A stretch of 64,000 nucleotides of DNA from Amphiscolops sp. MND2022 (lineage: Eukaryota), in assembly GCA_964187785.1 (NCBI GenBank), contig OZ076409.1, positions 15,688,001 through 15,752,000 on the forward strand, given 5' to 3'. Below are positions 41,794 to 62,462 of this stretch, one piece after another (the first letter of the stretch is position 1; every line of letters starts with the position of its first letter). The notes below the pieces were generated by a model. The model saw only the letters and a program-made list of their open reading frames with translations, did not search any database and was not told where the DNA came from. The position numbers and the translations under genes were made by a program.

Positions 41794-42284
41794 TGCCAAA
41801 ACGTTTAAAACTCCAATGATGTGGTACTGGCGATACGTGTCGCTCTTGAAAACTGCAGTTGTCACCAGACAGCTTCCAATACCCAAATTCAAAACGAGGA
41901 AACATATTGTCGCAAACACCAGGGAAACTGTTATCTCCTTTTCTTGCCGACTTACAGCTCCTTTCAGTTTCTTCAATTTGAAAATTATCAAAATGTCGGA
42001 TACCGAAATGATGCAAAATGGCACACCAATTAGACCAACAAATATAATCCAGAATACATAGATATCTTTTTGTTTTTCGGTAAGTATTCCACTACTAGCC
42101 ACGAAACAGTCATCGTTGAGAATTTCATACATGGTTAGTACAGGAAAGCACATTATGATACCGAAGCATTGCAGAGCTAGTGTTACCCAAACAGCTATGT
42201 TCGGTCTGCCGTATGTTTTATATTTGATAGGGATCCAAAGAGCAGCCACCCTGTCAAGTGACAGAAATGCCAGCACGTAGTTAG
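41794..42284 (-). CDS. GPCR paralog 2, middle exon, 491 bp
   Basis: Acceptor ttttcag| then (A)NYVLAFLSLDRVAALWIP...NVLA, donor |GTTAGT. Same length as the paralog 1 exon. ORF 41776-42276. Confidence 0.85.
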
Positions 42285-43232: not shown

Positions 43233-43967
43233 TGTAGCGATTACCTATCGAGTGCACGATTTCGAAAATTTCGATGAAAATTTCGTTCAAGGGACTATAT
43301 CTCCTCTACTAAAGAGTCATATTCCGCTAGACGGCAGCGTGTCTTTATTCAAGTACCTGCCCACAGAATTGAAGAGAATTTGAGCAAAAGACTCGAGAGA
43401 GACCCCAACCGAACAAGAAGATTGCAGAAAAATACGGCCACTGTCAAAAAAAAAGACTCAAATTCCTGCCAAAACGGACTGAACTTTATTCTAACCAGTG
43501 CTTTCTCCAGCGAAGCGTTACAAGACGCTGTGATTACCAAAATGAGTCAATTAGCTTGACCAAGCATCCGTGCTTGTGTCCCCGGCTAATTGCTGCCTCA
43601 AAAGTGCAAATTATGTAGTAATTTTCGTATTTTCTTGTTGTAACAGCTCGTGAGCTACTCATTTCGATCTCCTGTGTAACTTCGAAAAAACTTGATTTTT
43701 CCTTTCCACCACTTGCATTTTTTAAAGGCTGTCTAAGTGTTGGTTTCGAAGAAAAAGCGTAATGCGCACTACTGATAGCAATTACAGACTGGATCAGGCC
43801 GGCGAGCACTTCACAAGAAGCGGAATCCTCCTCTGACGGGACAGTTTTTACCCGAAAGAGGCAAAATGAGCTCATGGTCATGGGCGCCTGTCCCGGGCAA
43901 ATACCCATATCATGTGTTCCTCTAACTCTTATGGTTACGGCGACAATGGTGAGAGCTTGTCGTTACA
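43233..43967 (+). repeat. 5' LTR
   Basis: TG...CA termini with imperfect terminal inverted repeat (TGTAGCGA vs TGTAACGA). Matches 61728-62462. Confidence 0.95.
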
Positions 43968-43983
43968 TAGAGACATCATTTTT

Positions 43984-44000
43984 TGGCGACCACAGAGGGA
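43984..44000 (+). promoter_or_regulatory. Primer-binding site (tRNA-Arg-like)
   Basis: TGGCGACCACAGAGGGA resembles the complement of the metazoan tRNA-Arg(TCG) 3' end (TGGCGACCACGAAGGGA, recalled). Confidence 0.7.
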
Positions 44001-46358
44001 TCGCTTCGAAGTGCTTCCCTTAATGGTTTTAAAATAGCCGACCCTCTGGTGATTGACGCCAAGTACGACCCGACTCTGATGGAAAGAGGAGAGAAGCAGA
44101 GTTTTTCCATATTTTTACCCTGTGTGTGTTATTGAAGACTTCAACCCCGGTGGATAAAGGTAAATCTTGTAAAAAAGCGTTGTATGTTGTGATTTTCATG
44201 CTTTTTTAGTAGTTGACAGGTAACGATCGAAATAGCCTACCCTCTTAACGGGTCACTCATAAAATTGGTCTAGCAAGCCGCTGGGAGGCTGCTAGAAGTG
44301 TTAACAGGTGTTTTCTAGCCTTTTTCAGCTTTTTATGACCAATGAAGTGAGTGTTGAGAAGAGGATGATCCTTGCTCAGAGGAATCTTACAATCTGCCGA
44401 AACGAGTTATACGACTCACCGATCCCATTTCCCGTACAGGCAACCTAGAGAAATGAAATTTGGTGGAGACGTACTACAAATGCTGACGTGTCTAATGGTG
44501 CAACCTGTTTGTCTCTGGCTGTTCTGGGTGATGAGCAAAAAGAACGAGAAGACACGATTCGTCAGTCCGGGTTGTATGATATTTTTGAGTCAGGTTGAAA
44601 AAATTTTTTGAGTCGCTCAAAATTTTGTGTACGACCATTTGCCAATGTTTTTACGAGCCTTCTGCAACTAAGTGTGTGCTTTTGCACCTATTTTGTGCGA
44701 AAAAAGTGCGTTTTTCATGTATTTTCGACGAAAAGTGCCAAATTTGGCCATTTTGAGGCGAAACACCTACATGAGCGCGAGCGCTCTTGGTGCTAGCCAC
44801 GCACCTGCAGAAATTAAATAAAAGTAGCTCAGGACTCTAACGAGTTCGCAAAAAACGCGACGAAGTACTCAAAGTTGCCCGAGAAGGCACTTAGTATAAG
44901 TTTTGTGAGGAAAAAACCCCGTTTTTGAAAAACTGAACATTTTAGCACTTTGAACTTGTGGGGGAATTTGTGTGGAAGCTTTTAAACACCCCCGTATGGT
45001 TGCAATTAGGTTGGGGTACACCTGCCGGTACCCAACAATACCCATTTTGGTAATTATAACCACTACTTCTTAAAAAAAGTTACGAGAACTGTGATTTTGA
45101 AGTTTTTCTATAGTACTCTTAGAAGAAACCCAACTTGACTATTGACGAACACTTTTACGCTTAGAACAGCCCCAGGGCTATTGTTTTCAGTTTATTCGGT
45201 AAATTTAACGATCTACAGTAAAGACCGCATCCCAAAATTCCTTTTCAGTGCTGAGAAAAGTAGAAAAATGCACTGAAAAACCTCCATTTTCCTAAAATCC
45301 GGACTGTCTCTGAGCTAAGGTCGGGTCATTGATTCTTGGACCTTAGCCAAAAGGTGGTTGCACTTTCATAACCACCACTAAAAATAACGCTAGTGCCGAA
45401 AATTTGGTGGACGTAACTTTCACCAAAATCGAGAAAAGTTCTCTAACATTTCAACTTCAGAGGACTGTAAAACTGCCGAAATAATCTAAAACTGAAGGAC
45501 TGTCGGTGCCTTGTGTTTAACAGACACACCTAATCGAGGGTTTACCCTAGTGCTACGAGTAGTGGGGCAACACGTAGATCCCATTTTTTCAGCCCTACCA
45601 CTTTTTGAGGTGACCCTCTTAGCCAATTTGTAAAAAAAAAAGTAGTCCAAAATTGTTTTTCTTTATGAGTGTTGTCCAAGTAAGGTCGAAACATCAAATA
45701 AGCGTCCGCGCTTTCTTTTGATGGTTTCACCGGCATTGTACACACTCATCGGCTGTAACCACAAAGTTTCATGTCAATCCAACTGGTACTTGATGAGAAA
45801 ATAGAAAAAACGTACCACTCAAAAAGTTGGGCATAGAGGGTAATTTTTCAAATTTTTCCTGAGTGATCCGAGTACCTTAATTGAAAAACGAGGTTGAATT
45901 GCAGTTCATTTCTATCATTTGTACCAGATATTACGTTGTTTTGCAAATTTTGAGCCCGCTAGCTTTTTTCAATGGAGAATAATCTTGAAGTAAGCATGAA
46001 AATTGATGTATCTTGATGACTAAGGGTACCGAACGTCCAGATCAGCCTGAATCTTGAAATAAAAACCTTAGCTTAGACTTAATTTTGCTATCGTGTAGTA
46101 CACCTACCACAAGGTTAGGTGGCCAATTTTCAAGTGTTTCCGACGATTAGACGTTGCGTTCGAGGCATCTTAGTCATTTATAAAGAAATATAAAAAACTC
46201 AAAAATTGTCTAAAAACCCAATTGTTTGCGAATCAGCTATTCCGTAAGCCCCAAACGCACGGTTTCCGGCCCCACACCACGGTATCAACGCGCTGTGTAA
46301 GTTTCACGCCGGTACGACCCCTAGATCGATTTTTGACTTTTTCGAGACGTGCGAAGTC

Positions 46359-49300
46359 ATGAAGCCCAACAGTTTGCGTAACCTTTGGATTTCTATAACG
46401 AGAACATTAAGCCGCACGAACACCCAACGACGCTCTAATCATTCAAAAGGGGGGAGGAAGGACACCTCGCGATGCACTGAAGCATCAAAGACACCAGACC
46501 CAACGGGGTGCGAGACAAATCTCAGTGCGATATCAGACCTGACCTCAGACCCCAGGGAGGAAGATTGGCCAACTGATGACAGTTTCGTTATGGAACCCGA
46601 TTTTTCAGACCCTATGTCAGACGACGCATCGGAGAAGTATCAGGCCAAGCCAATCGCCAGGACTACCGATGATATCGGAGGTTCAGCCGACGAAACAGGA
46701 AGTCAGGCGCACACGTCCAAATGGTTACAAGAACTCACTAAAGTAGCCGTCACACCTTTTGGTACTGACGAAGCAGGAACATGGCCCAATTCCAACAGGA
46801 CAAACGCTGAAGAGGAAGCTGAAATGAGTTGCTTGAATGCCACTGGACAACTCAAAGCTCCCAGCATGGCCAGCGAGAGCACTGCAAACACGGCAGAGAT
46901 ATTGCAACAAATGTCTTATGTCGGGGGTATGAATTATGCCAGGGCACGTCTTCAAGAAGCTACGGCCCCCCGAGCATCTGGGAAGGGTAAGCAAGTACGG
47001 CCTCCAGCCTTACTAGCACAGACCGGCACTACGGGACCTCATGGCGACTCGCGCTCATCCTCACCTTCATCAAAAGCTGCATCTGCCCGATCCTCAGCAT
47101 ATCGAGCCGTACATGAAGCAGCGAAAGCGCGCAAAGCTCTGTTAGATGCCCAGATAGGCGTGAAGCAAGCTGCTTCACAACTGTCTGAGCGTAAAGCAAG
47201 GTGCGATAGAGAGCATCAGTCAATAATGGAGGAGATAGAAGCCGTACAAACTGAACTGCGAACATCAACTGAGCGACAAGCGCAAGGACATGAAATTCAG
47301 GCAGCCCGAATGGATGCCGTGGGTTATCGAATGGCTGAAATAAAGGACATGGTGACCGAAAGAGAGGTGCGCATGGAAGCTCAACTGCAAGAGGTATGTT
47401 CACAGATACAAGCAATGGGCACTATGTTGAAGAATATCCAACCTCAACCCGCACCAGTAAGCAACACTATCAAAGAATTGCTGCAAGACACTGATATATC
47501 ACTGCCAAAACCCATGAAAAGCGTCTCCCTCAAACCAAAAGAGAGTGTGACGATTTCAACAAACCCATCTGGCTCTAAACAACACTTGGCCAGGTACGCG
47601 CCCTTGCCACAAACTCTGGTCTCAAATGGAGAAGCTGCGTCAACATCGACGAAATTTATCCCATCCGCGGTATCAACAAAAAATGTTCCACCCACGACCA
47701 AAACTCACAAGAAAGAACCAACGTGCGAGGTGATAACTATCGACACTTCAAGCATGGGTATCAGCGACCTGCGAGAGCCCACACGCACAAACGTGCTAAC
47801 CGAAGTCACTAGCACCTTCCAAACAGCAAATGCAACTTTGGGAGAATCAGCAGCAGAATTCCAAACCGCGAACGACGAATTACCCCCGGGCAACCCATGC
47901 GCCAGCAGCACTCGACGCCGAGAAGTGACTCTCCCCGAGAACACCGATGACTCTGTCAACTCAACGCGAGGCAGCAGTATCCCGCCACCAGCCATCAGTG
48001 AAGAAGCGCCTATATCACCGGAGCAACTCAGGTTTACCGAGGCAATATCCAAAGCCATGTCCAAGGAACTGGCGCCGCTGATTGCTAATCGAGATCAAAC
48101 TAGGGTGCGCCCTACGATATACAAAGGCACTAAAGATGGTTCTGTCGATGGATGGCTCCCAGTGATGAAGCGATTTCTAGAAAGGGTACATGCAAAATCC
48201 CCAAAGATCGACAGAGCCTGGGCTATCATCGATCACCTGGAAGGAGAGGCAAGAAATTATATAATCAACAAATCTGAACCTGAACGTGACGAGCCCGACA
48301 AGGTATTCTCTCTCTTGGCCAGCAGATTTGGAACCGGTGGAAATCGCATGCACGTCAGGCAAACCTTCATGTCTCGTGTCCAACAGGAAAAAGAGGATTG
48401 GATGCAATTCTTGGACGCATTAGAAGGTCTGCGCACCCAAGGTTTCCCAGACGAGCCTATCACTACGCGTCGTTATGAAATCCTGCAACGTTTTATAGAT
48501 GGTATAAATGACCCGACGCTGCGACGAGAGTTGGCCGTGGTGTACGCTGCAGAGTCATATCTGACCGAGCCACCAACTGTAGAATCCCTAAGGTTCACCA
48601 CGAGACAATTACAACGGCATCGCCCAAACGCGTCAAAACCTTACGACCCAAGGTATGCAATGAGATCGAGGCCTCACCCTTTCGTGCCAGGAAAATTGGT
48701 TCATCCAGCACCAGGCCTACCGCAAAACGTACTACCTCCAAACCAAGGACAACGAGAGGCTAAACCCCAAATGGCTCCACCAGGCCCTGCATCGGTAAAA
48801 CAGGCTCCTGCACAACAGCAACCAGCGAGAGTGATTCCCCAAGGAGCATGCTTCAACTGTGGACTACCAGGTCACTTTGCAAGGGAATGCCCAAGTCGAG
48901 ACCTAGCAAGGAAACCAGCGGCTCGCGCTGCACCCGAAGAGCGAGTAAACTTATGCGAGAATAATGTGGCCTCTGCATGTTCTGGCCCCGTATTCTGTGT
49001 AAATTGTGGCATGACCGAACACTCTGCATCACAGTGCCAAAATGTTCCAGTACATGAGGATTTGGCCTACAGCCTCTGGGCTGAACAGCCATCTGCTTCT
49101 CAAACAATGAGTGACAGCGAAATGGTACTCATGCTTCGCCCTGCTGAAGCCGCTCACGTGACGACGCCCCTTACCGTCACATGTGGCAAAATCCAAATCC
49201 AGACGAACCCGGAGCCAACTACTTTTGATCCCTCGGGACGCACTATCATGTCTGTCCGATTACTATTGGCGATTGAGAGAGAAACCCGCCCAGAACTCAC

Positions 49301-52300
49301 CATAGACGCTCTGATAGACGAGATAACCGCAAACAAGAATTGCCGACAATTGACCCTGCCCCAACCGGAAGAATGGCAGGTAAAAGGCGTCACTTCGACG
49401 TATCATGCCTATTCTCCGATTCCAGTCAAAGTTTGCATAGATGGTGTTGACATGCGTTTTGGTGCCACTATCATTACTGACGCGTTTCCTCCTGGAATCT
49501 GCTTGGGACCGCAGGAGCTGCGCTGCTATAACATTGATGCTCAAGAACCAACTGGTGAAGCGAGAATCGATGAGCGTGCGTCGCTCGTAGTTTCATTCGT
49601 GGTTCCCGATGCTGCTCCCGTGCCATTACGTGGTCTGATAGACACTGGATCAGGAGTGTCCATCCTCACCTTCTCAGCCTACAATCGAGTCGCCGTGCGC
49701 ACTGGGACACTCTTACGACCTTATGGTATTGACTTATATGCCGCGAATGGGAAGACGATCAAAACTTTTGGTCTAGCGGAGAAAGTCAAATTCCAATTGG
49801 GAGGCTACGAATTGGAAACTAACTTCGTGGTAGTCGATGACGCCATGGGAGTGGAAGACTTCCTCCTGGGCAGAAACTTCCTAAGAGCTTATCAAGTCTT
49901 AGTGGATTTAACCGCGATGAAGGTCATTGTCCGAGCTCCGTCTGAACCAGTGTGGTACCATGCCCACACACAAGTAAGTAACGAATCACTCAATTCGTCG
50001 GTAGCGATTGCACAGGACGTAGTGTTGCAACCTTTTGAACGCGCAATACTACGCGCTAAATTGCTTGTAGACAACTTAGAACCTTTCATGTTTCGGACCG
50101 TGCTAATCAATTTTCAAACACCTAACCGAATGTTAAAAAACGCCATCTTTTTAGAGGACACCGTGGCGACCGTGGGGGAGACTGGCTTCCTTTACGTCAG
50201 TTTAGGAAATCTTACCAGCAACGTGCAGCGGATTAAAAAGGGCACCCTTTTAGGAACCGCGGTACCTGTAACGATGGTTCATAAAGCCATCCCCCAAATT
50301 GTCCCCGGACAATCAAGTGAAACTCAGCAGTCAAATGCAAATTATGTTTGTAAAGTTTACGAACAGATGAACCTTGATTCTTCTTCTGAATATAGTTCTT
50401 CATCTGAATTTGAGTTTTTGTCCTCTACCGAACCGTCAGAACTAGGCTTGTCCGAGCGCGAAGTAAAAAGACGAACCGATCCGGCGTTAATGGCTCCGAT
50501 ACCGGGCCCGGAAGCACAACTCGACGAGGTGCGCGGTTTGTGGGGATCGACCGCCAGCGACACGCTTAGTAAACTTTTGAACGAATTTGATGATTTGTTT
50601 ATGAAATTCAAAGCCGACATTGGCAAGTGTAAAATCGCTAAGCACCCGGTGGAAGTAGAGCCAGGGGCTGTACCCCACCGCGAAGGTGCAAGACGAATGT
50701 CGCCTGACAAGGCAGAACGTGCTAACCAAGAAGTTCGTGACTTGCTAGCTTTGGGAATGATACAACCTTCCTTATCCCCTTGGGCGAGTGGAATTGTTAT
50801 GGTCAAAAAGAAGAGTGGTGAATTGCGATTCTGTTGTGATTTTCGGCCACTTAATGAAGTGACCATCAAAGACGCTTATCCCTTGCCACGCATCGATGAA
50901 AGTCTATCCCGATTGGGCAAGGCCAAAATCTATACTAGTATTGACTTGGCATGGGCATTCTGGCAAATTCCTGTCCGAAAAGCCGATCGTCAAAAGACTG
51001 CCTTCGCTTGTGAACTTGGGTTATTTGAGTGGCGGCGTATGCCTTTTGGTATGTGTAACGCATCAGCAACATTTCAACGGGCAATAGCGCGAGCGCTACA
51101 AAGAATAGTGAACCGTGAAGGAAGTATGGTTATGGCCTACATCGATGACATTGTGATTGCTACCGAGACCATCGAGGATCACATGGATAGACTACGCGAA
51201 GTATTCCAATGCCTGCGTGAGGCCGGGTTCAAAATGAGAGTCTCCAAGTGTGACTTCATGAAATCGGAGATCAAATATTTGGGCCGGGTCGTATCCGCAG
51301 ATGGTATCAAGCCAGATCCAAAAGCTGTCACCAAGCTGAAAGAATGGGATATCCCGCGAACCAAGACTGAATTGCAGAGTTTCTTGGGTTTTGCCAACTA
51401 CTATCGGGATTTTATCCCGTGGCATGCAAAACTAGTTGCCCCTTTACACGCGATAACGGGAGGAGCCTCTTCATTTTTATGGGGGGAGGAGCAGCAGCGA
51501 GCCTTCAACAGCATCAAAGTGGCACTAATGGAAGCCACTGCTCTGGCGCAACCCGACACTGAAGGCGAATTTGTTCTCGACACAGATGCTAGTGGTGTAG
51601 CTATATCGGGTATTCTGCACCAATGGCAAGGACCACCTGAGAGTCGCAAACTGCGACCGATTGTATTCGGAAGCAAAAAATTAACTGCTACGCAAGCAAA
51701 GTATGGAGCCCCAAAATTGGAAATGTATGCTGCATACTATTTCATCTTGAAAAACCACAGTTATCTCTGTCCACGAAAGTTCACACTGAGGGTAGATAAT
51801 CAGGCCCTATCCTGGCTAAAAACATATTCGATGGATCAGGCGATTATCGGTCGATGGATTATGGCTCTTGAAAAATATCACTTCAGTATTGAGCACCGAC
51901 CCAGAACGCAACATCGAAATGCTGACGGTCTTAGCAAACGAACAAATGATTACAAAAAACACGAAAAGCAACTAAAGGGTTTACCCGCAATTGCAGACAA
52001 ATGGGATTTCCTATCACAGGAGGAATATAACAAACTCCCGCTAGCCCCATGGTTCGATGTCCACGGACGTGTGATACCAAATCACCCAGAATTGCCTGCA
52101 CACTTGCAGAGGTTGGGTAGCCAAAGTTCACCCGAGACCACAGTTGCCGTTCCCACGCGAAGGAGCGGACGAAGCAAACGAAATGCGACCATACGCGACG
52201 AAGCCATGAGAGCGCCCCTACCTACATTGCCAAAACCAGAATTGACACTGCCTGCCGAACTTTATCCAGAATATCCTGAGGATTGGTTGGAACTGACCGA

Positions 52301-55300
52301 GGAATATCAACGAGACTATTTACTCCCCACGCATGCTGCTAACGTACCATCAAGAACCACTTACCCATTGACGGAAAAGCAAGCAACTAGCACTGCACCA
52401 GAGCACGTGAAACAAGCCGCGTTCGTGGTAAACAGCATATCAATGGAACTGCATGAACATGCTAACACAGTACATGGGTTGAAGGATCTACTACTAGCAC
52501 AAAACCGTGACGTCCATATATTGGCTATCAAGAAATTGGTAATGCAAGAATCAATAGATAATGACGTCTTTCCGGAGAATGTACGTGCCTTTGCCAAAAA
52601 CTACCACAAACAGAAGAAGAACCTTCTACTAATAAACACCAACGGGATTTTGTGTGTAAAATACTCCAAAAGTCAAAGAGCTTTGCATGAACGCCCCTGC
52701 ATGATAGTGATGCCACAATTGTATCAGCATGAGATACTATTCAAGGCCCATGACGCGATGGGACATCAGGGCATCGCGAAAGACTTGGCCAGAATTCAAG
52801 AGCGCCACACTTGGCCAGGCATCCGCCGCACCATTGGACAATACGTCAGCCAATGCATCACTTGTCAACAAGTACGCGACAAGCCTGGTGATGTACGCTT
52901 TCACTTGAAGAATATCCAAAGCGGTTATTTCAACGAGCTAGTCCAATATGACCACATGAAAATTTGTCCCTCTGATGATGGTAACACAGGGATATTGGTT
53001 ATTATCGATCATTTCTCTAAACTCGCAGAAGCTGTGCCGTGCAACCACGATGAGTATGATGCAGCGACCACTTCAAAGTTGTTGTTGCAGAAGTGGTTTG
53101 CCCGCCATGGAACACCGACGAGGATGCAGTCAGACAATGCTCCCAATTTCACCGCGGCAGTATCTGCTGAGTTTATGAAAGCAGCCCAAGTGACCAAAGT
53201 AACCTCAACTGCTGGCCACCCCAGGACTCAAGGGTTGGTAGAGCGACAAAACCGAACGCTACTCACCCTACTGCGTGTATTCTGCTCTAGACGAATGCGT
53301 GACTGGGATCAGTACCTAGATGAAGTTATGGGTGCATACAACTCCACACGTCATGCCACGACTGGATTCTCCCCGTATATGCTGACCAGAGGCATGGAAA
53401 AAGCTATACCCCTGACTTTCTTGTATCCAGAATTTGCAACTCAGTCATTCGAATCACACGAAGCCTATGTGGAACATGTGCTGGCTCGACAACAAGAGAT
53501 TCATGACTTAGTCCGTCGCAACACGCATCAAGCCCAGCAACGACAAAAATTGAAGTACGACAGAGCAATTCGTGCTAAAGCCTACGAAGTGGGCGAACCT
53601 GTTTGGGTATTCTGCCGATACATTCCTCAAAAGGGATCTCCTAAATTGATGAGAGCGTGGCGTGGTCCTCACAAGGTAGCACGAGTGCTACAAGAGGGAC
53701 GTGTCTACATACTTGACACTGGTCAGAAGGTGCATTTCGAACGATTGAAACCGCATCATGGTGGTCCAACAGAATGGGCAGCTGTTCCTGCGCATAACGG
53801 CGAGGTTGCTATCATCATGGACCCTGATCCAGAACAATCCCATGAGGAGGTGAGAGACGATGCTTCGCAACCTTCTTACCGTGCAGAGGAACCAATTTCA
53901 GAAGCCAGTAATGCCTCTTTGCCTTCTCGACAAAGACATTGGATGGACACACGGTTACGCACACACATGCGCGCAGGTGGCAGCCGCCTACACTATCAAC
54001 AATTTGGCTACTCTTCGACTGAGTCTGACGATGAACGTTCTGATGTACTCCTATCGAGTGTTCAGGCCAGTCCTGATGAAAGTGTTATCTTGTCATCACA
54101 TGTAGATGAACCTGCGCCTATTCCCGAAATGCCAATATCACCACTACCTGCTATGGAGGCTCTGTTCTCAGAGAATGAAGCAGTACCCGACGCATTGGAC
54201 ATCACCCCGGATCCTACTATCCACGTACCCACCAAAAGTGCCGCCACCTCTTTGACCGGTACATCCGCCCCATTATTGACAAATCCATCTCTTACGGATA
54301 TGTTGAGTAACTTTCCCATTTGGCCCCTAATCGATGACAATGTTCTCAACCCAACCCTAGACGACAACGGTGCTGAAATACCAACAACCAATAACGAAAA
54401 GGGATCGATTCCCCCTGCGACAGTTCCCACCAACAACAATGCAGCTACTACCACGAAACTCTCCAATGCTCCTAGAGGGCGTGGACCCCGGGGACGTCCG
54501 CCAGGCAGAGCGAGGCCGCGAGCCTCGCTGCCACGTGGTCACCAACGGAGAGGTGCTATTAGAGGCGCTCGCAAAAGAGGCCGTCCCAGAGGTAGACCTC
54601 CTCGTATAACGCACGCCAGACCTAACACTCCTACCCGTGTTCGTAGCACTCCATCTATGGACACTGACTCTTCTGCCCCTAGCGCGGCGGTTACCTCAGA
54701 TCAAGCAGCACCGCCAGAATCAACCAACGCTCGTTATGGACTGCGACACAATCGTATTCCCAGATATCGTTGCGGAACATGTGGCCTACGAGACTGCGAA
54801 TGTAACTACATGGTCCACGCGGGCTTCCCAATCAAACCCCAGGGAGTCCTGCTAGCACGTGAACAGGAAAAATCGCTTCCAAGCGGAACGGTTGACCGTT
54901 TGGTTATTCGGGCCGAGAAGACTTATACTGGGCTACAACGCAGCGACACTCCATATCCCGTGGACTATATCCTATCCAAAATGAAAGATTCTACGATAGC
55001 AAAGGCCCCGTGCCCAAGGTTCAAGGAGTGGACCTATGATCTTGTTGGTTTGGAGTTCACCTTACCCATCACTGTTCCCCCTTTGCCTACAAATATTGCC
55101 TTTGGTCCTTTCAACTACGAGCGAGAGCCTATCCAAATGATACGCTGTATTCCTGCTGACCTCTTGTATGACAAATACAACGTCACCGCAAAACCAGGAG
55201 ACGTTTATCAGCCTACAAGCAACTGGTGGCTACTAGTTACGGCCAAACAAACATCCGACCTGGTTCATCCCTCTAACTTGAACACCTGTCTGGAGAGTTT

Positions 55301-56126
55301 GCGGACGATGGCCTCTCCTGATAGAATCACTTGTTTCCACACCATAGACCTATATCGTGGTAAAATTAAGTTTGAATGGTGGCTGGAACTTATTATAGCG
55401 GTCTTATCGAATTTTTCACGAATCAGATTCCTGGACGAATGGACACACTCATTTCCTAGTTCTGTATCGCTCCAATCGGCCCTGCACGCACTGGATACAT
55501 GGTCCAGGGCTAATATTGATAATCAATCATTGCCGCGATCTGTGTGGCAAGACTTGGGCGCAATCAAAGGCCTCCTCCCGAATACATGTAACGATGCTCT
55601 CTCCAAAGACCCCGGACGAGAGTTAGTGTACCATGGAGCCGTGAGACCTCAATTGGTTGACTATGTGCAGTATGCCAATACGGACTTCCTGCAGACTCCC
55701 CATCACATTGTTTTATGTTGTCCCGCAAATCTGGAAACTAGTTCTGCCGCTCTTCGTTACGTCATTCTTGAGCATGGTGCAGATGCAATCTTTCAACTTC
55801 GACCGGAGGTTGGCAATATTGTAACGCTACCCACATCTTTGATAGACGGCCATCCTCAGACTATCCACCTTTTAATCACACGAGCTACACCTCGCTGCCC
55901 TATGCTCGCTGATATTCTCCTTGGATGTCTTGATCATTTGAAAACGTTACTCGAGCGCTTGGAGGCGATAGAAGTACACTTTGCCATCATTGATCCTGAG
56001 CGCCCAATACGTAATCTTTTCGATTTTTATACCTGTTTGATGGACGTATTCGCCGACACCCCCCTGACCGTCGTTCTTCACGATCGCGTTTACGTATCTA
56101 TTGCAAGCGTCGCTAGCTTTCCGTAA
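46359..56126 (+). CDS. Gag-Pol polyprotein, 3255 aa, with accessory C-terminal domains
   Basis: Capsid-like ~48110-48620. Two CCHC knuckles (48849-48890, 48996-49037). Protease LIDTGS (49641). RT YIDD (51138). RNase H DTDASG...NADGLS (~51570-51935). Integrase HHCC and D(52950)-D(53133)-35-E(53241). GPY/F-like WRGPHKV (~53660). About 780 further aa follow. Confidence 0.97.
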   Translation: MKPNSLRNLWISITRTLSRTNTQRRSNHSKGGRKDTSRCTEASKTPDPTGCETNLSAISDLTSDPREEDWPTDDSFVMEPDFSDPMSDDASEKYQAKPIARTTDDIGGSADETGSQAHTSKWLQELTKVAVTPFGTDEAGTWPNSNRTNAEEEAEMSCLNATGQLKAPSMASESTANTAEILQQMSYVGGMNYARARLQEATAPRASGKGKQVRPPALLAQTGTTGPHGDSRSSSPSSKAASARSSAYRAVHEAAKARKALLDAQIGVKQAASQLSERKARCDREHQSIMEEIEAVQTELRTSTERQAQGHEIQAARMDAVGYRMAEIKDMVTEREVRMEAQLQEVCSQIQAMGTMLKNIQPQPAPVSNTIKELLQDTDISLPKPMKSVSLKPKESVTISTNPSGSKQHLARYAPLPQTLVSNGEAASTSTKFIPSAVSTKNVPPTTKTHKKEPTCEVITIDTSSMGISDLREPTRTNVLTEVTSTFQTANATLGESAAEFQTANDELPPGNPCASSTRRREVTLPENTDDSVNSTRGSSIPPPAISEEAPISPEQLRFTEAISKAMSKELAPLIANRDQTRVRPTIYKGTKDGSVDGWLPVMKRFLERVHAKSPKIDRAWAIIDHLEGEARNYIINKSEPERDEPDKVFSLLASRFGTGGNRMHVRQTFMSRVQQEKEDWMQFLDALEGLRTQGFPDEPITTRRYEILQRFIDGINDPTLRRELAVVYAAESYLTEPPTVESLRFTTRQLQRHRPNASKPYDPRYAMRSRPHPFVPGKLVHPAPGLPQNVLPPNQGQREAKPQMAPPGPASVKQAPAQQQPARVIPQGACFNCGLPGHFARECPSRDLARKPAARAAPEERVNLCENNVASACSGPVFCVNCGMTEHSASQCQNVPVHEDLAYSLWAEQPSASQTMSDSEMVLMLRPAEAAHVTTPLTVTCGKIQIQTNPEPTTFDPSGRTIMSVRLLLAIERETRPELTIDALIDEITANKNCRQLTLPQPEEWQVKGVTSTYHAYSPIPVKVCIDGVDMRFGATIITDAFPPGICLGPQELRCYNIDAQEPTGEARIDERASLVVSFVVPDAAPVPLRGLIDTGSGVSILTFSAYNRVAVRTGTLLRPYGIDLYAANGKTIKTFGLAEKVKFQLGGYELETNFVVVDDAMGVEDFLLGRNFLRAYQVLVDLTAMKVIVRAPSEPVWYHAHTQVSNESLNSSVAIAQDVVLQPFERAILRAKLLVDNLEPFMFRTVLINFQTPNRMLKNAIFLEDTVATVGETGFLYVSLGNLTSNVQRIKKGTLLGTAVPVTMVHKAIPQIVPGQSSETQQSNANYVCKVYEQMNLDSSSEYSSSSEFEFLSSTEPSELGLSEREVKRRTDPALMAPIPGPEAQLDEVRGLWGSTASDTLSKLLNEFDDLFMKFKADIGKCKIAKHPVEVEPGAVPHREGARRMSPDKAERANQEVRDLLALGMIQPSLSPWASGIVMVKKKSGELRFCCDFRPLNEVTIKDAYPLPRIDESLSRLGKAKIYTSIDLAWAFWQIPVRKADRQKTAFACELGLFEWRRMPFGMCNASATFQRAIARALQRIVNREGSMVMAYIDDIVIATETIEDHMDRLREVFQCLREAGFKMRVSKCDFMKSEIKYLGRVVSADGIKPDPKAVTKLKEWDIPRTKTELQSFLGFANYYRDFIPWHAKLVAPLHAITGGASSFLWGEEQQRAFNSIKVALMEATALAQPDTEGEFVLDTDASGVAISGILHQWQGPPESRKLRPIVFGSKKLTATQAKYGAPKLEMYAAYYFILKNHSYLCPRKFTLRVDNQALSWLKTYSMDQAIIGRWIMALEKYHFSIEHRPRTQHRNADGLSKRTNDYKKHEKQLKGLPAIADKWDFLSQEEYNKLPLAPWFDVHGRVIPNHPELPAHLQRLGSQSSPETTVAVPTRRSGRSKRNATIRDEAMRAPLPTLPKPELTLPAELYPEYPEDWLELTEEYQRDYLLPTHAANVPSRTTYPLTEKQATSTAPEHVKQAAFVVNSISMELHEHANTVHGLKDLLLAQNRDVHILAIKKLVMQESIDNDVFPENVRAFAKNYHKQKKNLLLINTNGILCVKYSKSQRALHERPCMIVMPQLYQHEILFKAHDAMGHQGIAKDLARIQERHTWPGIRRTIGQYVSQCITCQQVRDKPGDVRFHLKNIQSGYFNELVQYDHMKICPSDDGNTGILVIIDHFSKLAEAVPCNHDEYDAATTSKLLLQKWFARHGTPTRMQSDNAPNFTAAVSAEFMKAAQVTKVTSTAGHPRTQGLVERQNRTLLTLLRVFCSRRMRDWDQYLDEVMGAYNSTRHATTGFSPYMLTRGMEKAIPLTFLYPEFATQSFESHEAYVEHVLARQQEIHDLVRRNTHQAQQRQKLKYDRAIRAKAYEVGEPVWVFCRYIPQKGSPKLMRAWRGPHKVARVLQEGRVYILDTGQKVHFERLKPHHGGPTEWAAVPAHNGEVAIIMDPDPEQSHEEVRDDASQPSYRAEEPISEASNASLPSRQRHWMDTRLRTHMRAGGSRLHYQQFGYSSTESDDERSDVLLSSVQASPDESVILSSHVDEPAPIPEMPISPLPAMEALFSENEAVPDALDITPDPTIHVPTKSAATSLTGTSAPLLTNPSLTDMLSNFPIWPLIDDNVLNPTLDDNGAEIPTTNNEKGSIPPATVPTNNNAATTTKLSNAPRGRGPRGRPPGRARPRASLPRGHQRRGAIRGARKRGRPRGRPPRITHARPNTPTRVRSTPSMDTDSSAPSAAVTSDQAAPPESTNARYGLRHNRIPRYRCGTCGLRDCECNYMVHAGFPIKPQGVLLAREQEKSLPSGTVDRLVIRAEKTYTGLQRSDTPYPVDYILSKMKDSTIAKAPCPRFKEWTYDLVGLEFTLPITVPPLPTNIAFGPFNYEREPIQMIRCIPADLLYDKYNVTAKPGDVYQPTSNWWLLVTAKQTSDLVHPSNLNTCLESLRTMASPDRITCFHTIDLYRGKIKFEWWLELIIAVLSNFSRIRFLDEWTHSFPSSVSLQSALHALDTWSRANIDNQSLPRSVWQDLGAIKGLLPNTCNDALSKDPGRELVYHGAVRPQLVDYVQYANTDFLQTPHHIVLCCPANLETSSAALRYVILEHGADAIFQLRPEVGNIVTLPTSLIDGHPQTIHLLITRATPRCPMLADILLGCLDHLKTLLERLEAIEVHFAIIDPERPIRNLFDFYTCLMDVFADTPLTVVLHDRVYVSIASVASFP

Positions 56127-56348
56127 AGCTTTTGTTTTTCCGCTTTTTTTTGTTTTTGTTTTTTATCCGCTCGATTAAGTTTAGTGAGTCGACACGGAGT
56201 TTATGTGAAACTGTTACGTTACCATTTTCTTTAATGTTAGTGTGTGACATTATATTACTTTCCCTGATATTACCCTTAAAATGACCTATGGTGTTGCCCA
56301 ACTATCAAGTGTGCTACAATCGACCTGCACTCTTTCAGAATTGTCGTC

Positions 56349-59300
56349 ATGAACCAAGATAACGATAGAAGCAACAACGTCCCGCCAAGGTCTACAGATA
56401 ACTCTCCTGCCTTGGGGCAACGCGTCTATGACACTGCGCGTGTCCAACGCACCCCACAAATTGCCTTTATTCGAGACAGACTCGACCAAGGTCTGTCGCC
56501 AGCTACAGTTGCCGGGGTGGCGGCAATCATTGCCCAGATGGAATCACAATTGCAAGCCCCAATGCTGACGATATCAATTACTTCAGGGTTTCCTGGGTTC
56601 CAACGATCCATGACATACCAAGATGGAGTGTGGCACGGCCATGATCTCACGCATCACTTCACGGATGATCGTGCGGCGATCTCATACAGTCCTGCGAATG
56701 GCGGAGTCCATCAGACTAGACCTCTACAGATCCCTTCTTGCCCGCCTCCACCTCCACCGCCACCTCCTGCATCAACACCACAAGCAGTAGTGCGTGCGCG
56801 CACTCCTGCTCCTACAGTGCCTGACTTGCCCAATCAATCTATGGCGGAGCAAGCAGTCATCTCAGCACTGCAAGCAGTGGCTGCCAACCCCAATTACGAT
56901 GATTTCATGCGATCCATGGAGCAGTGTTGGCCAGAACTACGTCGAATTGCTCTGCCCACTGTCACTATTCGCAACGACAATGTGACTTCAACTGAAACAC
57001 GTCAAGGTGTCATCACTATTCCCCACATCAATCCTCAGTCTGAACAGCCAGGACACTCTCGCACCGTGACTGTAGAGCGCAGTCGTTCGCCTTCCCGCTC
57101 TTCTCAAAAGGGGGGAGGAGAGAGCCGCCCTGCCTCAAGAAAACGCAACGACCCTTCTCCAACAAAAAAGACTCAACAACCACTGACTGCCCGTGACAGT
57201 CCCTCGAGCAAGCCACCACCCGACAAAAAGATCTCCAACGAGAAGGCCACAACCTCCAAAGCGCCAGACCAAACAAAATCAAAAGTGTCGGAAGCATGCG
57301 TGCTTCCCTCACCCCAATCACAACCGGACGTAACAGGCGAACAACAAGGACTGCCGCAACCACCATCCACGCAGTCTACAACACGCGAGTCGCTGGCTCA
57401 ACGAGCGACTCCTAAGCCTTCCACATCAAGACAGCCACAAACGGAGCAAACTGTGGGTTATCAAGGCACCCCTGAATCTCAGCGAACTGTCAAGGACATA
57501 ATGGGTGATTACCCAGGGTTGAAGGTAACCAACAGTGGTCCAACTGGAACCCCACTCCGCAAACAGGCGATTCAACACCCAACTAAGAGAACCTTTACGA
57601 AACAGCCGACGTACCTGAGTCCAATGCAAAACACAAAGGGCACACTGGTCACCAAGGATTCCCGACGTATCTGGGAATCGGCAGTTATAGTATCGCCCGA
57701 ATGGCTATTTGAGAAGAACATGTGTCCTCCGAATGACGAAGAGCATGCGAAATTGAAGAAGGCGAATGTACCTGCATTCATGAATCGTCCAATCCGCCCC
57801 GACCACACCCCTACCAATGAGCCGCCATGGCTAGGGAAGGCAATGAATATGCTGCCAAACGTGGAAGACAATTACTTGGACGCCGTCAACATTGACCTTC
57901 GTGGGCAATTCGCTGATCGATATTTCCTCAACGCTGGAGAGACCTTCGAGATCAACCCACGGTACGCCCGTGACCTCGAAGCCCAGCTACCAATGCCAAA
58001 AGAAAGGTTGCAGCGTGCGCGCTTCGCCTTACTTATAGACTCAACATTCCTCAAGAATGTCCCCATTGACAATGTGCTGTCAGACGTGATGGTTTTTACT
58101 CTACCGCTGTCACGTATTCCCGAGATGGCCGAAGTGTTGGTCACCATGTTTGACCCTGAGATGACAGGAACCTTCAAAGAGCCACCCCCACGCAGAGTGA
58201 TCATCAGCAACGTTTTCGATCACATGGCCTGTGAAGGACTAATGGCCCAGATCGCGAACGTTGAAATTATAAATCCAAGTCCAGCACAGCGAACAACAGT
58301 ACGCAATGCAGCATTGAACATGGCCCGAGCCATGGAAAAAGCCCAAAACATCTTAAAGGATAAACTCAAGGTGCCAGCCCTGTTCGTGACACCCCCAGGT
58401 TTCTGCCAATGGCCTCCCGCCTTGCAGAGATTTATCTACATGGTAACAGAAGTTTGCAAGTGTAGAGAAATAGACTTTGCGATCTGCGCGCCCAATATGC
58501 GGATCGGCTCCAACGACTTTCGTCCCTCCTGGCTTTCCTACATGGGGTATGTTGCCTCAGTGTCTAAAGTGCTACAGTCAGTGGAAAAGACTGGGAACGC
58601 GCAGCTGACAATCGATGATGCCATCTACTTTGATCACGGCACTCGTATGGGATTATTAGTATTCAATAACGACGGAGAAAGGCGAGTCCCAGAACCCAGT
58701 ACGGCTGAATGTGAGGCAATCCGCCTGAATAACTGGATAGAGCGCGCGCGCTCCTCCGGTGGAAAGACTTGCATTAAAACTGATCTTGCGGAAGTCACTG
58801 CCATGATGAGCAAAGTCCCCAGTGACCGAGAAGTAGAACGAGCCATCCCGCGAGTTCAATTTGCCAAGGACCTCACAATTGATCAATTATCAGTGGGAAT
58901 GAAGTACATTGCTGCAAAATTGACGAGCGAGACTCAGGCTGAAATACAAGCCTTCAGCAGCACCTACGACGCCTGGTACCAGCGGCTACAAACTACCACT
59001 GTAGCAGACATTGCAAAAGAACTTGGGATGTCAACCGACCAATTTGCCATCTGTTTGGGATTGGGTTGGAGTCCCGATGTTATTCGAGTTGAGTTCGATT
59101 TAGACGAGAACTGGTTGATCGAAATCAGCAAGATTATCGGTACCATGCAGATAAACGAACTCTTTGCACTGATGCTCACTTTCGGGCAGAAACGCTTTGT
59201 AGCTGGCCCAATGATGATATTAACCGACCTGGTTACCGAGTGTAATCTGGAATGGCTATTTTCATACTTAGTGATTGCACGAGGGAATATCTCAGGCCTC

Positions 59301-60716
59301 GCCGCCTTAGCCAAGTTGTTGCAACGAAAAGACGCTCAGGATTATCCCGCTCACCTGGAGCGCATGACAACTTCGTTACATCACTGGATATATTGCAGTC
59401 TGGTCTTTGCCTCGGGACTTTTCGTGGGGGTGGATAAGCACCAACCATTATATGACGGACGTCAGCTAGTGACCGAGGTAGCCGGATTTTTGACACCTAA
59501 CCAGCTGGCAGATTTCACTTTGGCTGAAGTCGAAGATCTCGTACCGGTGTTAGCACCCGTGCTAACTCCGATATTTGGCCCAACCGGGATACTTCGCTAT
59601 CCCACCAAGCCTCTGCGACTGGCCTCGGAGACACTAACAGTATCCATCCTGACTTATCTGAAGAACGTGAAACCGCACAACTATCAACAGATGCTTGAAC
59701 GTGGGCTGTTTCTGCTAGTACCCCGCATGTATACCACCATAAAGAATGAGACGCAGCAAGACGAAAACCTGGCCGGTATTCTCAAAGCCCGAACAAAGAA
59801 GGCGTGCCCTTTACCTCGCGAATACGGCCCGGTGAATTGGTACAATTCGCCCCTAGATCACCTTGGAATCCCACAGCGATTCAATTGGAGTTTCGCACAC
59901 CTCAGGAAGTACGTGACTGAATGCGTGCAAACCATGGGCGGTCACACAAATCAGGAGTATAATTTTCAAATGATCAAGCTTCCAGCCAGGTACTGGCGAG
60001 GACCCATCGGTTATATCCGGGCTAAGCCAATCAGCATGGTCGAGAAGGGCTTTGATGAGCAGTACGCCTATCGCGATCACTACAAACTAGGCGTGTGGAT
60101 GTCAAGGACCCTGGAGGAACGCCAAGGGCGCCTAAAAGGTTTGATCATCCCCCCACTGACAATGCCTGTTTGGAATCCAGAGGCGAGGGTTACTATGGGA
60201 AGCGACATGCCAGCGGAGACTTGCTACCACGTCATGGAATTGCTGAATGATCCCCTCGGACCCGAATGGGAAGCCTCCAGGCAAATTATAGAACATGCAA
60301 ACAGGGACAACTGGTCCAGAGCCTGCGGGCTCTGGGGCCGACCTGATCTACGTCCGAAACTCAGTGCGAAACAGAAACGACCCATTGCCACCCGCAATAG
60401 ACCGCTGGATCTACCGCACCTGTTTAATGCCAGTAGATTGGATGTGCAGATCCCAATCTCCACGTCGACCACAAGTTCTGCCAATGTTAGCGGCTCAGCC
60501 AATGCAGCGCAAGAACATTCGCCAGAAGCCTCAACTCCTGTAGCCGCAGAAAATGGCCCTAGTGGCTCAAACACGGCTCCCAGGACCCATGAAACTACCA
60601 GCGCCGAACCAAAGCCAGTCCTGCGAGAAGGAAATGCGCGAAGAGGATCTCTATCCGAACTGCAACCAAAGGCCGACGTCTCCCCCAGAGCGCGTCACTC
60701 CTCCGCCACCCAGTAA
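56349..60716 (+). CDS. Second ORF, 1455 aa, function unknown; Pro-rich disordered N-terminus and a central SGNH/GDSL-like fold
   Basis: Uninterrupted 4.4-kb ORF between pol and the 3' LTR. Block-like motifs FALLIDS / VFTLPLSRI / VIISNVFDH / SNDFRPSWLSY at 58020-58573. Confidence 0.85.
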   Translation: MNQDNDRSNNVPPRSTDNSPALGQRVYDTARVQRTPQIAFIRDRLDQGLSPATVAGVAAIIAQMESQLQAPMLTISITSGFPGFQRSMTYQDGVWHGHDLTHHFTDDRAAISYSPANGGVHQTRPLQIPSCPPPPPPPPPASTPQAVVRARTPAPTVPDLPNQSMAEQAVISALQAVAANPNYDDFMRSMEQCWPELRRIALPTVTIRNDNVTSTETRQGVITIPHINPQSEQPGHSRTVTVERSRSPSRSSQKGGGESRPASRKRNDPSPTKKTQQPLTARDSPSSKPPPDKKISNEKATTSKAPDQTKSKVSEACVLPSPQSQPDVTGEQQGLPQPPSTQSTTRESLAQRATPKPSTSRQPQTEQTVGYQGTPESQRTVKDIMGDYPGLKVTNSGPTGTPLRKQAIQHPTKRTFTKQPTYLSPMQNTKGTLVTKDSRRIWESAVIVSPEWLFEKNMCPPNDEEHAKLKKANVPAFMNRPIRPDHTPTNEPPWLGKAMNMLPNVEDNYLDAVNIDLRGQFADRYFLNAGETFEINPRYARDLEAQLPMPKERLQRARFALLIDSTFLKNVPIDNVLSDVMVFTLPLSRIPEMAEVLVTMFDPEMTGTFKEPPPRRVIISNVFDHMACEGLMAQIANVEIINPSPAQRTTVRNAALNMARAMEKAQNILKDKLKVPALFVTPPGFCQWPPALQRFIYMVTEVCKCREIDFAICAPNMRIGSNDFRPSWLSYMGYVASVSKVLQSVEKTGNAQLTIDDAIYFDHGTRMGLLVFNNDGERRVPEPSTAECEAIRLNNWIERARSSGGKTCIKTDLAEVTAMMSKVPSDREVERAIPRVQFAKDLTIDQLSVGMKYIAAKLTSETQAEIQAFSSTYDAWYQRLQTTTVADIAKELGMSTDQFAICLGLGWSPDVIRVEFDLDENWLIEISKIIGTMQINELFALMLTFGQKRFVAGPMMILTDLVTECNLEWLFSYLVIARGNISGLAALAKLLQRKDAQDYPAHLERMTTSLHHWIYCSLVFASGLFVGVDKHQPLYDGRQLVTEVAGFLTPNQLADFTLAEVEDLVPVLAPVLTPIFGPTGILRYPTKPLRLASETLTVSILTYLKNVKPHNYQQMLERGLFLLVPRMYTTIKNETQQDENLAGILKARTKKACPLPREYGPVNWYNSPLDHLGIPQRFNWSFAHLRKYVTECVQTMGGHTNQEYNFQMIKLPARYWRGPIGYIRAKPISMVEKGFDEQYAYRDHYKLGVWMSRTLEERQGRLKGLIIPPLTMPVWNPEARVTMGSDMPAETCYHVMELLNDPLGPEWEASRQIIEHANRDNWSRACGLWGRPDLRPKLSAKQKRPIATRNRPLDLPHLFNASRLDVQIPISTSTTSSANVSGSANAAQEHSPEASTPVAAENGPSGSNTAPRTHETTSAEPKPVLREGNARRGSLSELQPKADVSPRARHSSATQ

Positions 60717-61717
60717 AACAAACCTAACATTGTCGTCATTCGATTTCCAACTTCAATAGTCTTATGCTAGATGAACTTTTGCGAAATCTCATGGTTTCAA
60801 TCTCTGTTGTTGCTAAACTTCGATTATGGAAGTGCCAATTGGTCATGGGTAAAAATCTCCAAGTGGAGATGAAGCCCCCGGGCTTCATCCTCCTTATTAT
60901 TCCGTTTTGGGACCGGCAACCCAACCATGAAACTGCGTCTTTGCCTTGCCTTAGTTAGATGCAATATTCAATTTGCAATTTGTGTTTGCAGTTAGTGCTT
61001 TTTCATGCTACCTTATGCTACATGTGGATGCGCTGTGCGCACTCCGTGCTCTAAATTTTCGGTGCTATTACACCCTTTCAGTTACTAGTTATTGTTTACA
61101 CTGTTGCCATTGTCGAAAAAGACAAAAAGAAAAGATGAAGGAAAAGGAAACAAAAAGGGAGAGATGAGAAATGAATAGAATAAAAAGATTGATGAACCTC
61201 GACCATTGTTTTTCTTGAGCTACCTGATAGGATCGAGAGTAAGTCTCGCAAAAGAAATTTTAAATTGACCGTACTAATTGATTGATTTTATGGCAACTGC
61301 TTACCAAAAGAACTTTTATCAAACGCCAAGCAGTGCGAAGCTCCCGAGCTTCGGAAAATATGTTTCGAACAGTCATGTGATGGTCGTTGACCTTAAAACA
61401 AGTTTTAACACTAACGGCAAATAAAGAATTTTTTTTGAATGGCCGAAAAGAAATTTTAACGCCTGAATTGCTCACGACAGGCTACAAAAAGTAATGACCT
61501 TGCCGTATAAGATTTGTATACAAAATTGTATTGATTTGATCAAAATGCAGCAACGCTGGGTCAAAAACAATTCCACGAGGCCAACTTGACGATGTCTCAA
61601 TGAACTGCCCAGCGCTACTTGATGTGCACTCTACCTCCTCAGTGGGACACAGATGACTCTGGGTACAGACTCGATGACGCCAACCCACACTTGACGGGGA
61701 CGTCAAGACTAGACCCC

Positions 61718-61727
61718 GGGGAGTGTA
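61718..61727 (+). promoter_or_regulatory. Polypurine tract (short)
   Basis: GGGGAGTGTA immediately before the 3' LTR. Confidence 0.6.
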
Positions 61728-62462
61728 TGTAGCGATTACCTATCGAGTGCACGATTTCGAAAATTTCGATGAAAATTTCGTTCAAGGGACTATATCTCCT
61801 CTACTAAAGAGTCATATTCCGCTAGACGGCAGCGTGTCTTTATTCAAGTACCTGCCCACAGAATTGAAGAGAATTTGAGCAAAAGACTCGAGAGAGACCC
61901 CAACCGAACAAGAAGATTGCAGAAAAATACGGCCACTGTCAAAAAAAAAGACTCAAATTCCTGCCAAAACGGACTGAACTTTATTCTAACCAGTGCTTTC
62001 TCCAGCGAAGCGTTACAAGACGCTGTGATTACCAAAATGAGTCAATTAGCTTGACCAAGCATCCGTGCTTGTGTCCCCGGCTAATTGCTGCCTCAAAAGT
62101 GCTAATTATGTAGTAATTTTCGTATTTTCTTGTTGTAACAGCTCGTGAGCTACTCATTTCGATCTCCTGTGTAACTTCGAAAAAACTTGATTTTTCCTTT
62201 CCACCACTTGCATTTTTTAAAGGCTGTCTAAGTGTTGGTTTCGAAGAAAAAGCGTAATGCGCACTACTGATAGCAATTACAGACTGGATCAGGCCGGCGA
62301 GCACTTCACAAGAAGCGGAATCCTCCTCTGACGGGACAGTTTTTACCCGAAAGAGGCAAAATGAGCTCATGGTCATGGGCGCCTGTCCCGGGCAAATACC
62401 CATATCATGTGTTCCTCTAACTCTTATGGTTACGGCGACAATGGTGAGAGCTTGTCGTTACA
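61728..62462 (+). repeat. 3' LTR
   Basis: 735 bp. One substitution seen versus the 5' LTR (gtgcaaatt vs gtgctaatt). Confidence 0.95.

Follow-up and report, generated by a model that had tools for sequence, protein, structure and literature searches.

The window analyzed here is a stretch of 64,000 nucleotides from Amphiscolops sp. MND2022 (assembly GCA_964187785.1, contig OZ076409.1, positions 15,688,001 to 15,752,000). At positions 43233-62462 it contains a Ty3/Gypsy-type retrotransposon of 19,230 bp. The two long terminal repeats (LTRs) of 735 bp are 99.86% identical, differing by a single A/T mismatch, and enclose a leader of 2391 nt followed by two uninterrupted open reading frames (ORFs) in the same frame (Table 1). 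The original prediction, made by a model from the DNA letters, had described LTRs of this length with one difference, a leader of about 2.4 kb, an open 3255-aa Gag-Pol with intact protease (PR), reverse transcriptase (RT), RNase H (RH) and integrase (IN) motifs and an open 1455-aa extra ORF, and all of these were recovered.

In ORF1, Pfam assigns a zf-CCHC motif (aa 830-846), an aspartic protease (1089-1176), RT (1482-1642, E 6e-36), RNase H (1708-1840) and integrase (2119-2331), and the catalytic motifs DTG (1095), YIDD (1594), DTDAS (1741) and the D, D(35)E of the integrase are all present. The direct LTRs with TG…CA ends, the primer-binding site (PBS, although displaced by 16 nt), the polypurine tract, the order Gag-PR-RT-RH-IN, the CX2CX4HX4C knuckle and a GPY/F-like motif behind the integrase core (WRGPH at aa 2434, with GPH at aa 2436; WRGPF in the relative P0471) are those of Ty3/Gypsy elements. 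The nearest ESM Atlas clusters consist of Gypsy-type Pol proteins, the RT-RH part is 37-38% identical to that of ordinary Gypsy elements, and an Rfam scan of the element gave no match. As judged from these features together with those described below, the element is probably an autonomous, recently active member of the Ty3/Gypsy group (Metaviridae) from a lineage with altered integration geometry. Such an element would work like any autonomous Gypsy element, with changed end processing and a changed stagger. The three-base target-site duplication (TSD) and the displaced primer site, neither of which the original prediction had noted (nor had it assigned an identity to ORF2), are more surprising than size and cargo, which have precedents, and the interest of the element lies in this integration signature and in a series of pseudo-esterase proteins.

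The family is young and recently active, as had been predicted: in the 10 full-length copies that were fetched, 0-7 sites distinguish the two LTRs of a pair. Both ORFs are open in three of these copies, and the other seven carry stops or frameshifts. In the host genome of 1.07 Gb, a search with the LTR yielded 1833 candidates (all 40 scored were 98-100% identical), one with ORF2 yielded 3308 (all 125 scored were 97-100% identical), patterns of the LTR ends matched 529 and 645 times, and of the 73 Pol loci scored, 40 fall within uninterrupted frames of 3267 aa or more. This recurrence of ORF2, LTR ends and Pol shows that the element is neither a chance arrangement nor an assembly artefact, and the approximately 3,300 ORF2 candidates would roughly correspond to perhaps a few percent of the genome. 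Only 2 of the 20 insertions that could be paired by hand from LTR-end matches are solo LTRs, and most of the LTRs listed belong to paired full-length elements; this paucity suggests either slow recombination between LTRs or a very recent burst. A 249-bp 3' fragment of an LTR of this family (33315-33563, 93.6% identical) lies in the window near a gap of 200 N at 32760.

Searches with diverged ORF2 homologues uncovered about 10 sister families in the same genome, from which 12 elements were fetched. Eleven of these possess an LTR pair and measure about 16-20 kb (one, internally deleted, 15.8 kb), and the two-ORF layout is common to all. Identities to the sister families are mostly about 40-52% in ORF1, including its tail, and 28-36% in the ORF2 core, with family L as a close exception (83-96%). 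In a quick RT-RH tree of 78 rows, calculated without named reference elements, outgroup or root and omitting 49 near-identical sister-family polyproteins (of 120) as well as rows covering less than 80% of RT-RH, the sister families fall into a 38-row clade of long polyproteins with a support of 100. Other species are the source of at least two groups of relatives, as the best matches of these in this genome are only 28-30% (P0107) and 47-49% (P0479) identical; all close relatives found appear to be confined to a few hosts.

Target-site duplication and priming

The window element is flanked by AAG on either side of its TG…CA termini, a TSD of exactly 3 bp. The same length was found in 9 of the 10 fetched copies, the tenth representing a tandem junction with a deletion, and in all 20 insertions with hand-paired flanks (three overlapping the fetched copies, two being the solo LTRs). 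When the right flank was predicted from the left one for 20 further insertions, 18 matched, two had no recognizable LTR end and none mismatched, so that all 45 testable insertions of the family, taken together, have a TSD of 3 bp. Both ends are present in 9 of the 12 sister elements, all of which again show 3 bp, and TG…CA termini are found in every copy and sister element with resolved ends. The 3-bp TSD is a property of the clade. Retroviral integration generates TSDs of 4-6 bp (PMC4005685), and so does that of LTR retrotransposons with the exception of Troyka (PMC12440569). This length, which is typical of LTR elements though not taxonomically defining, is not found here. Curation rules also expect TSDs of 4-6 bp (PMC8969392) and would miss or mis-trim elements of this clade. 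As a control for the host, 12 of 14 fetched other Gypsy loci were examined for both ends, and all 11 that could be resolved have 5-bp TSDs. These other young families (L060-L092, with ORFs of 1420 and 1610/1619 aa) are 12-17 kb long and carry LTRs of 2-4 kb.

The integrase core of the clade differs from ordinary Gypsy integrases by an insertion of two residues after the sequence AVPC. It is present in all nine rows of the clade and absent from all 17 other polyproteins aligned, including the closest sister lineage, and from all 14 control loci. P0240, P0241, P0251, P0261 and P0471 have no such insertion. In the proposed mechanism, the integrase would cut target DNA with a 3-bp stagger aided by this loop insertion, which the alignment marks as a candidate cause, albeit one we consider somewhat doubtful. 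The structural basis of the 4-, 5- or 6-bp stagger of retroviral-type integrases is mostly approached by comparing viruses that are distant from each other. Here, a single genome houses a 3-bp clade together with Gypsy families of 5 bp, and a close sister lineage lacks the insertion, which should make the determinant testable by comparison.

The PBS starts 16 nt beyond the LTR and is complementary over 18 nt to the host tRNA-Arg(UCG) including its CCA end. A spacer of 15-17 nt with a T-run is kept in all 10 copies and in all 11 sister elements having a 5' LTR end, although the leaders of the sister elements barely align, whereas the PBS of the 11 resolved control Gypsy elements lies 1 nt from the LTR. 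Families D, E, F and K (L024, L027, L030, L045) carry a PBS sequence other than that for tRNA-Arg(UCG) at the same 16-nt distance. Genes for the primer tRNA of the element form a tandem tRNA-Arg(TCG) array with a unit of about 174 bp (G000:C9:57.54-57.58 Mb; L058, L059), which contains 99 of the 100 matches listed out of 254 genome matches to the corresponding pattern. By the standard scheme of reverse transcription, minus-strand synthesis would begin 16 nt outside U5, and the linear cDNA would bear an extension of about 16 bp that has to be removed before joining. The extension would then be trimmed back to CA, probably through 3'-processing by the integrase, and the distance implies end processing far longer than that of the usual dinucleotide. 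No precedent for a displaced primer site turned up in a literature search, which is weak evidence.

Accessory regions of ORF1 and the ORF2 protein

The ratio of nonsynonymous to synonymous substitution rates (dN/dS, Nei-Gojobori method) indicates purifying selection on all accessory regions. Relative to family L, values of 0.02-0.28 were obtained for the ORF1 regions (pseudo-protease 0.14, dUTPase-like 0.13, Cys region 0.04, tail domains 0.13 and 0.15) and of 0.10-0.35 for ORF2; between family D and families E, F and K the ORF1 regions gave 0.03-0.27, with 0.04-0.27 for the accessory ones. For the ORF2 core, the ratio was 0.04-0.15 where estimable. The values rise up to 0.37 among very close copies, in which shared changes are counted repeatedly. 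The neutral ratios that would have spoken against the accessory gene set of the original prediction were accordingly not encountered.

The predicted presence of a pseudo-protease in addition to the protease was borne out as well. The region preceding the DTG protease, itself recognized by Pfam, matches retropepsin (hhalign probability 91.8, E 7.5e-7; 0.3 for the reversed control) and lacks the DTG. A complex model of the two scored 0.61, compared to 0.00 for the best of three controls, with runs agreeing in at least 77% of contacts and a predicted local distance difference test value (pLDDT) of the partner of at least 62; the mark applied is attained in 51 of 78 complexes of solved structure and in 2 of 108 pairs that were mismatched. 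This pass may stem from likeness to solved retropepsin dimers. The pseudo-protease might join the protease in a one-Asp pseudo-dimer and slow down the processing of the polyprotein, a proposal for which the case is nearly balanced.

For the tail of ORF1 (model pLDDT 76), the C-terminal domain was confirmed by its predicted structure as a macrodomain with the fold of TARG1/OARD1 and DarG (Foldseek E 1.7e-8; Z 16.1 with a root-mean-square deviation (rmsd) of 2.5 Å over 137 aa), and it recurs in relatives from other species. The domain in front of it is probably a degenerate macro copy (probability 60 and E 8.8e-5 against the second domain; E 1e-7 against the PARP14 macro1-2 tandem; Z 6.8). The macro-macro tail of the original prediction hence stands firmly for its second half and only moderately for the first. 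The macrodomain differs from TARG1 and DarG by an identity of only 12-14%, diverged ligand loops, its fusion behind an integrase and the probable degenerate copy. In the profile, the sequence 'ldperp' stands opposite the glycine-rich loop of TARG1, which would speak against a hydrolase. It is conceivable, if rather uncertain, that the AT-hook/Cys/macro tail tethers the integrase to chromatin or ADP-ribosylated sites without acting as a hydrolase. Two NCBI polyproteins of the same broad clade (P0256 and P0261, 3697 and 3930 aa) end in an Upf1-like SF1 helicase (AAA_11, AAA_12).

Table 1. Features of the element and their positions in the window.
Feature	Positions	Strand	Basis
Left 3-bp TSD (AAG)	43230..43232	+	
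5' LTR, 735 bp, TG...CA	43233..43967	+	
16-nt spacer between LTR and PBS, T-run at its end	43968..43983	+	
PBS, 18 nt, complement of host tRNA-Arg(UCG) 3' end including CCA	43984..44001	+	
Long AT-rich non-coding leader; little similarity to distant families	44002..46358	+	
ORF1 (ATG to stop), one 3255-aa Gag-Pol polyprotein	46359..56126	+	
Gag: capsid-like region (PNMA-type match in relatives), two CX2CX4HX4C knuckles	47991..49037	+	
Pseudo-protease: retropepsin homologue without DTG; common to wider clade	49161..49538	+	
Aspartic protease, active site (DTG) intact	49584..49928	+	
dUTPase-like region, weakly supported	49971..50288	+	
RT and RNase H	50571..51938	+	Pfam
Integrase: HHCC, D-D35-E, GPH	52713..53768	+	
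Integrase core loop with clade-specific 2-residue insertion	53043..53063	+	alignment
Basic AT-hook-like region (2 strict GRP motifs), then conserved CxxCxxxxCxC	54456..54818	+	
First tail domain, probably degenerate macro fold, moderate support	55071..55508	+	
C-terminal TARG1/DarG-like macrodomain	55638..56093	+	
Putative splice acceptor (pyrimidine tract and AG), 10 nt 5' of ORF2 ATG	56325..56338	+	inferred
ORF2 (ATG to stop), 1455 aa, non-env	56349..60716	+	
Small conserved N-terminal domain of ORF2	56448..56732	+	conservation among relatives
Predicted SGNH-hydrolase fold of ORF2; block I Ser retained, Arg at expected block V His	57993..58598	+	predicted structure and alignment
Conserved helical domain of ORF2	58848..59393	+	predicted structure and conservation
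Polypurine-tract region adjoining 3' LTR	61712..61727	+	
3' LTR	61728..62462	+	
Right 3-bp TSD (AAG)	62463..62465	+	

As predicted, ORF2 is not an env gene by its sequence: Pfam detects no domain, env and fusion domains included, in it or in any of 42 aligned members, a BFVD search gave no viral glycoprotein, and a hydropathy scan showed neither an N-terminal hydrophobic signal nor a clear transmembrane anchor. ORF2 was consequently rejected as an env gene in the sense of one for a membrane-anchored fusion glycoprotein that has a signal peptide. The ESM Atlas offered no usable match, and a profile search against PDB sequences and Pfam returned none. In the predicted structure, residues 549-750 adopt an SGNH alpha/beta fold (best Z 10.2, rmsd 3.8 Å over 179 aa), with SGNH proteins making up nearly all of the top 50 structural rows (Z 7.2-10.2). 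The block I Ser and an Arg in block V are each found in 14 of 14 rows and the GxND block is altered, which suggests a pseudo-enzyme without the catalytic His, i.e., a disabled esterase at the env position; the His-to-Arg replacement was assigned by motif position before the last helix and not by residue-level structural alignment.

Longer ORFs of a sister lineage (P0504, P0571 and P0572, 2168-2951 aa) contain an intact GDS-G-GTND-DGIH esterase upstream of an ORF2-like module, which is shared with E values of 1e-21 to 1e-45 in a profile search among 85 proteins. They appear to be tied to the Pol of that lineage via chimeric proteins such as P0247; the ORF2 profile matches P0247 itself weakly (probability 2.6), and the link emerged with full-length relatives. 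Among 44 scored loci in the genome, no close active-esterase version of ORF2 was found (best 28%). Short GDSL ORFs of about 300 aa also occur in the genome (L113-L116). Three of these immediately follow matches to Gypsy integrase and resemble the ORF3 arrangement of bdelloid elements; ordinary Gypsy elements of this genome appear to carry such an ORF as well. The natural series of a short GDSL ORF3, a tandem of active and dead domains and a dead domain only may help to address why SGNH proteins are captured by retroelements time and again.

In the window element and likewise in all 11 sister elements shown, ORF2 is preceded by a T-rich tract and an AG, suggesting expression by splicing. ORF2 would then be translated from a spliced message as a cytoplasmic, non-fusogenic adaptor, the dead SGNH domain of which may bind membranes or lipid and place particle assembly, with RNA binding as the main alternative; this sequence of steps is put forward tentatively, being nearly as plausible as its opposite. 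The membrane-directed role is proposed by analogy to ZfL2-1, the esterase of which binds liposomes even with a mutated active site (PMC3905857).

Alternative explanations and relation to known elements

For the short TSD, trimming by host repair or an error in the boundaries would be alternative explanations, but nothing was found in their favor and they appear practically negligible: the two other young Gypsy groups of the same genome have 5 bp throughout, the identity between the LTRs stops exactly at TG and CA, and a match extending to 4 bp occurs in none of the pairs checked. Host-caused trimming was rejected on these grounds. Inheritance of the 3-bp TSD from Troyka, either because the element belongs to this group or because its integrase derives from it, is very improbable. 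Troyka, which is restricted to aquatic animals and is the only LTR group so described (PMC12440569), resembles the element in its 3-bp TSD, a single Gag-Pol, the order PR-RT-RH-IN and the lack of env. However, it has CG…CG ends, LTRs of 100-400 bp, interiors of 1.5-7.7 kb and a CX2CX8-10HX4C knuckle without GPY/F, in contrast to TG…CA, 735 bp, 17.8 kb with a large second ORF, two CX2CX4HX4C knuckles and a GPY/F-like motif, and its RT lies outside Gypsy/Metaviridae (PMC12440569). In addition, the integrase core of the element aligns with ordinary Gypsy integrases except for the two inserted residues, and its identity to the sister lineage P0240 amounts to 45-56% per 100 aa. Membership in Troyka was rejected from termini, LTR and interior sizes, knuckle and GPY/F. 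Since these other defining features fail, the 3-bp TSD is likely convergent and probably represents a second origin inside Gypsy, as far as a comparison with Troyka by description, not by tree, allows.

ORF2 could alternatively act as a functional stand-in for env that lets particles of an infectious, retrovirus-like element cross membranes between cells. Its env-like position with a probable splice acceptor, the proposal that GDSL domains aid membrane crossing (PMC6431247) and the occurrence of several hydrophobic helices (hydropathy over 19 aa at best 1.73 in ORF2 and 2.07 in P0504) would fit this idea, which nevertheless seems quite unlikely given the missing env, fusion and glycoprotein matches, the lack of signal and anchor and the apparent confinement of the close relatives to a few hosts. 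An alternative that we regard as less improbable, though still unlikely, is a counter-defense in which ORF2 acts, like the OSK domain of Oskar, as an RNA-binding pseudo-SGNH protein and the macro tail as an ADP-ribose eraser or decoy, both blunting host silencing. The OSK domain of Oskar is a non-enzymatic SGNH domain and appears among the structural matches of ORF2 (Z 7.9), the best matches of the macro tail are TARG1 and DarG, and ORF2 diverges faster between families than RT. Yet no region has a dN/dS near or above 1, and the altered glycine-rich loop again speaks against a hydrolase.

Of the known giant elements, planarian Burro/GYPSM1 is likewise a giant Gypsy element of high copy number that encodes one huge multi-domain polyprotein, in which PR and RT are separated by a dUTPase-like domain (PMC6431247). 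It differs by its length of more than 30 kb, kilobase-scale LTRs and an ORF1 of about 4,900 aa with MATH, BIR, BCL2-like, ankyrin and env-like domains (PMC6431247), none of which Pfam detects here; an SGNH ORF2, a macro tail and the TSD length are not mentioned in the accessible part of its description. Membership in Burro was rejected in view of the 19.2 kb, the 735-bp LTR and the lack of Burro-type Pfam cargo. The bdelloid elements Vesta and Juno share a dUTPase between PR and RT and an SGNH/GDSL protein at the env position, but their GDSL ORF3s are catalytically intact (PMC5408684), whereas the SGNH domain appears dead here and belongs to a protein of 1455 aa that also contains a helical domain. 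The ORF1p esterases of ZfL2-1, CR1 and RTEX also have the SGNH fold, with membrane binding independent of the active site in ZfL2-1 (PMC3905857). These proteins and Oskar OSK (PDB 5a4a) are, however, non-LTR or cellular proteins that resemble ORF2 only at the fold level (8-14% identity).

No published family with the same architecture was found in a literature search of leaky coverage; Repbase and GyDB lay outside this search, so that a prior database entry is possible. In their accessible parts, acoel genome publications report LTR-rich genomes and describe no such element. The suggestion of the original prediction that the combination may be undescribed survives in this form, with size, dUTPase and esterase cargo each having a precedent in Burro or bdelloid elements. 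The most far-reaching reading combines an undescribed giant Gypsy clade, an independent origin of the 3-bp stagger (the second after Troyka and the first with TG…CA), removal of an overhang of about 16 nt, dependence on a conserved pseudo-esterase derived from a duplicated GDSL enzyme and a stagger set by the 2-residue loop insertion; as a whole it is offered cautiously, since we judge it a little less probable than its negation.

Several points weigh against the main explanation given above. The TSDs were read from the flanks of occupied insertions, and the loop is presumed to face the target DNA, the corresponding residues not having been found in PMC4005685. The insertion arose once and was inherited, so its correlation with the TSD is a single data point and a lead only. 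The roles of the accessory regions are proposals from sequence and predicted structures alone. The dUTPase-like fold named in the original prediction is a weak assignment (E 0.34-1.3 against solved dUTPases; PF04797 with E 0.046 in the relative P0471). For ORF2, the model has a mean pLDDT of 54.7 with 458 of 901 residues below 50, Foldseek found no match at E <= 0.001 in PDB and BFVD even if the high-probability rows are SGNH proteins, the call of the lost His follows motif position, and the splice acceptor could be a chance occurrence in T-rich DNA.

Other features of the window

Some 0.9 kb away from the element's 5' end, the minus strand carries a fragment of a host rhodopsin-family G-protein-coupled receptor gene (41779-42315, Pfam 7tm_1, E 1e-8), and a probable paralogue of it with 77% DNA matches lies at about 28008-28679 on the same strand. 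A decayed Gypsy-like pol remnant (about 19500-20400, minus strand) is flanked by a 380-bp direct repeat (17487-17866 and 20675-21052) without TG…CA ends. Tandem duplications occupy 5064-14830 and 36121-39192, comprising units of about 4.1 kb at 99% identity with internal arrays of 54 and 56 bp and two units of 1.54 kb at 99.7%.

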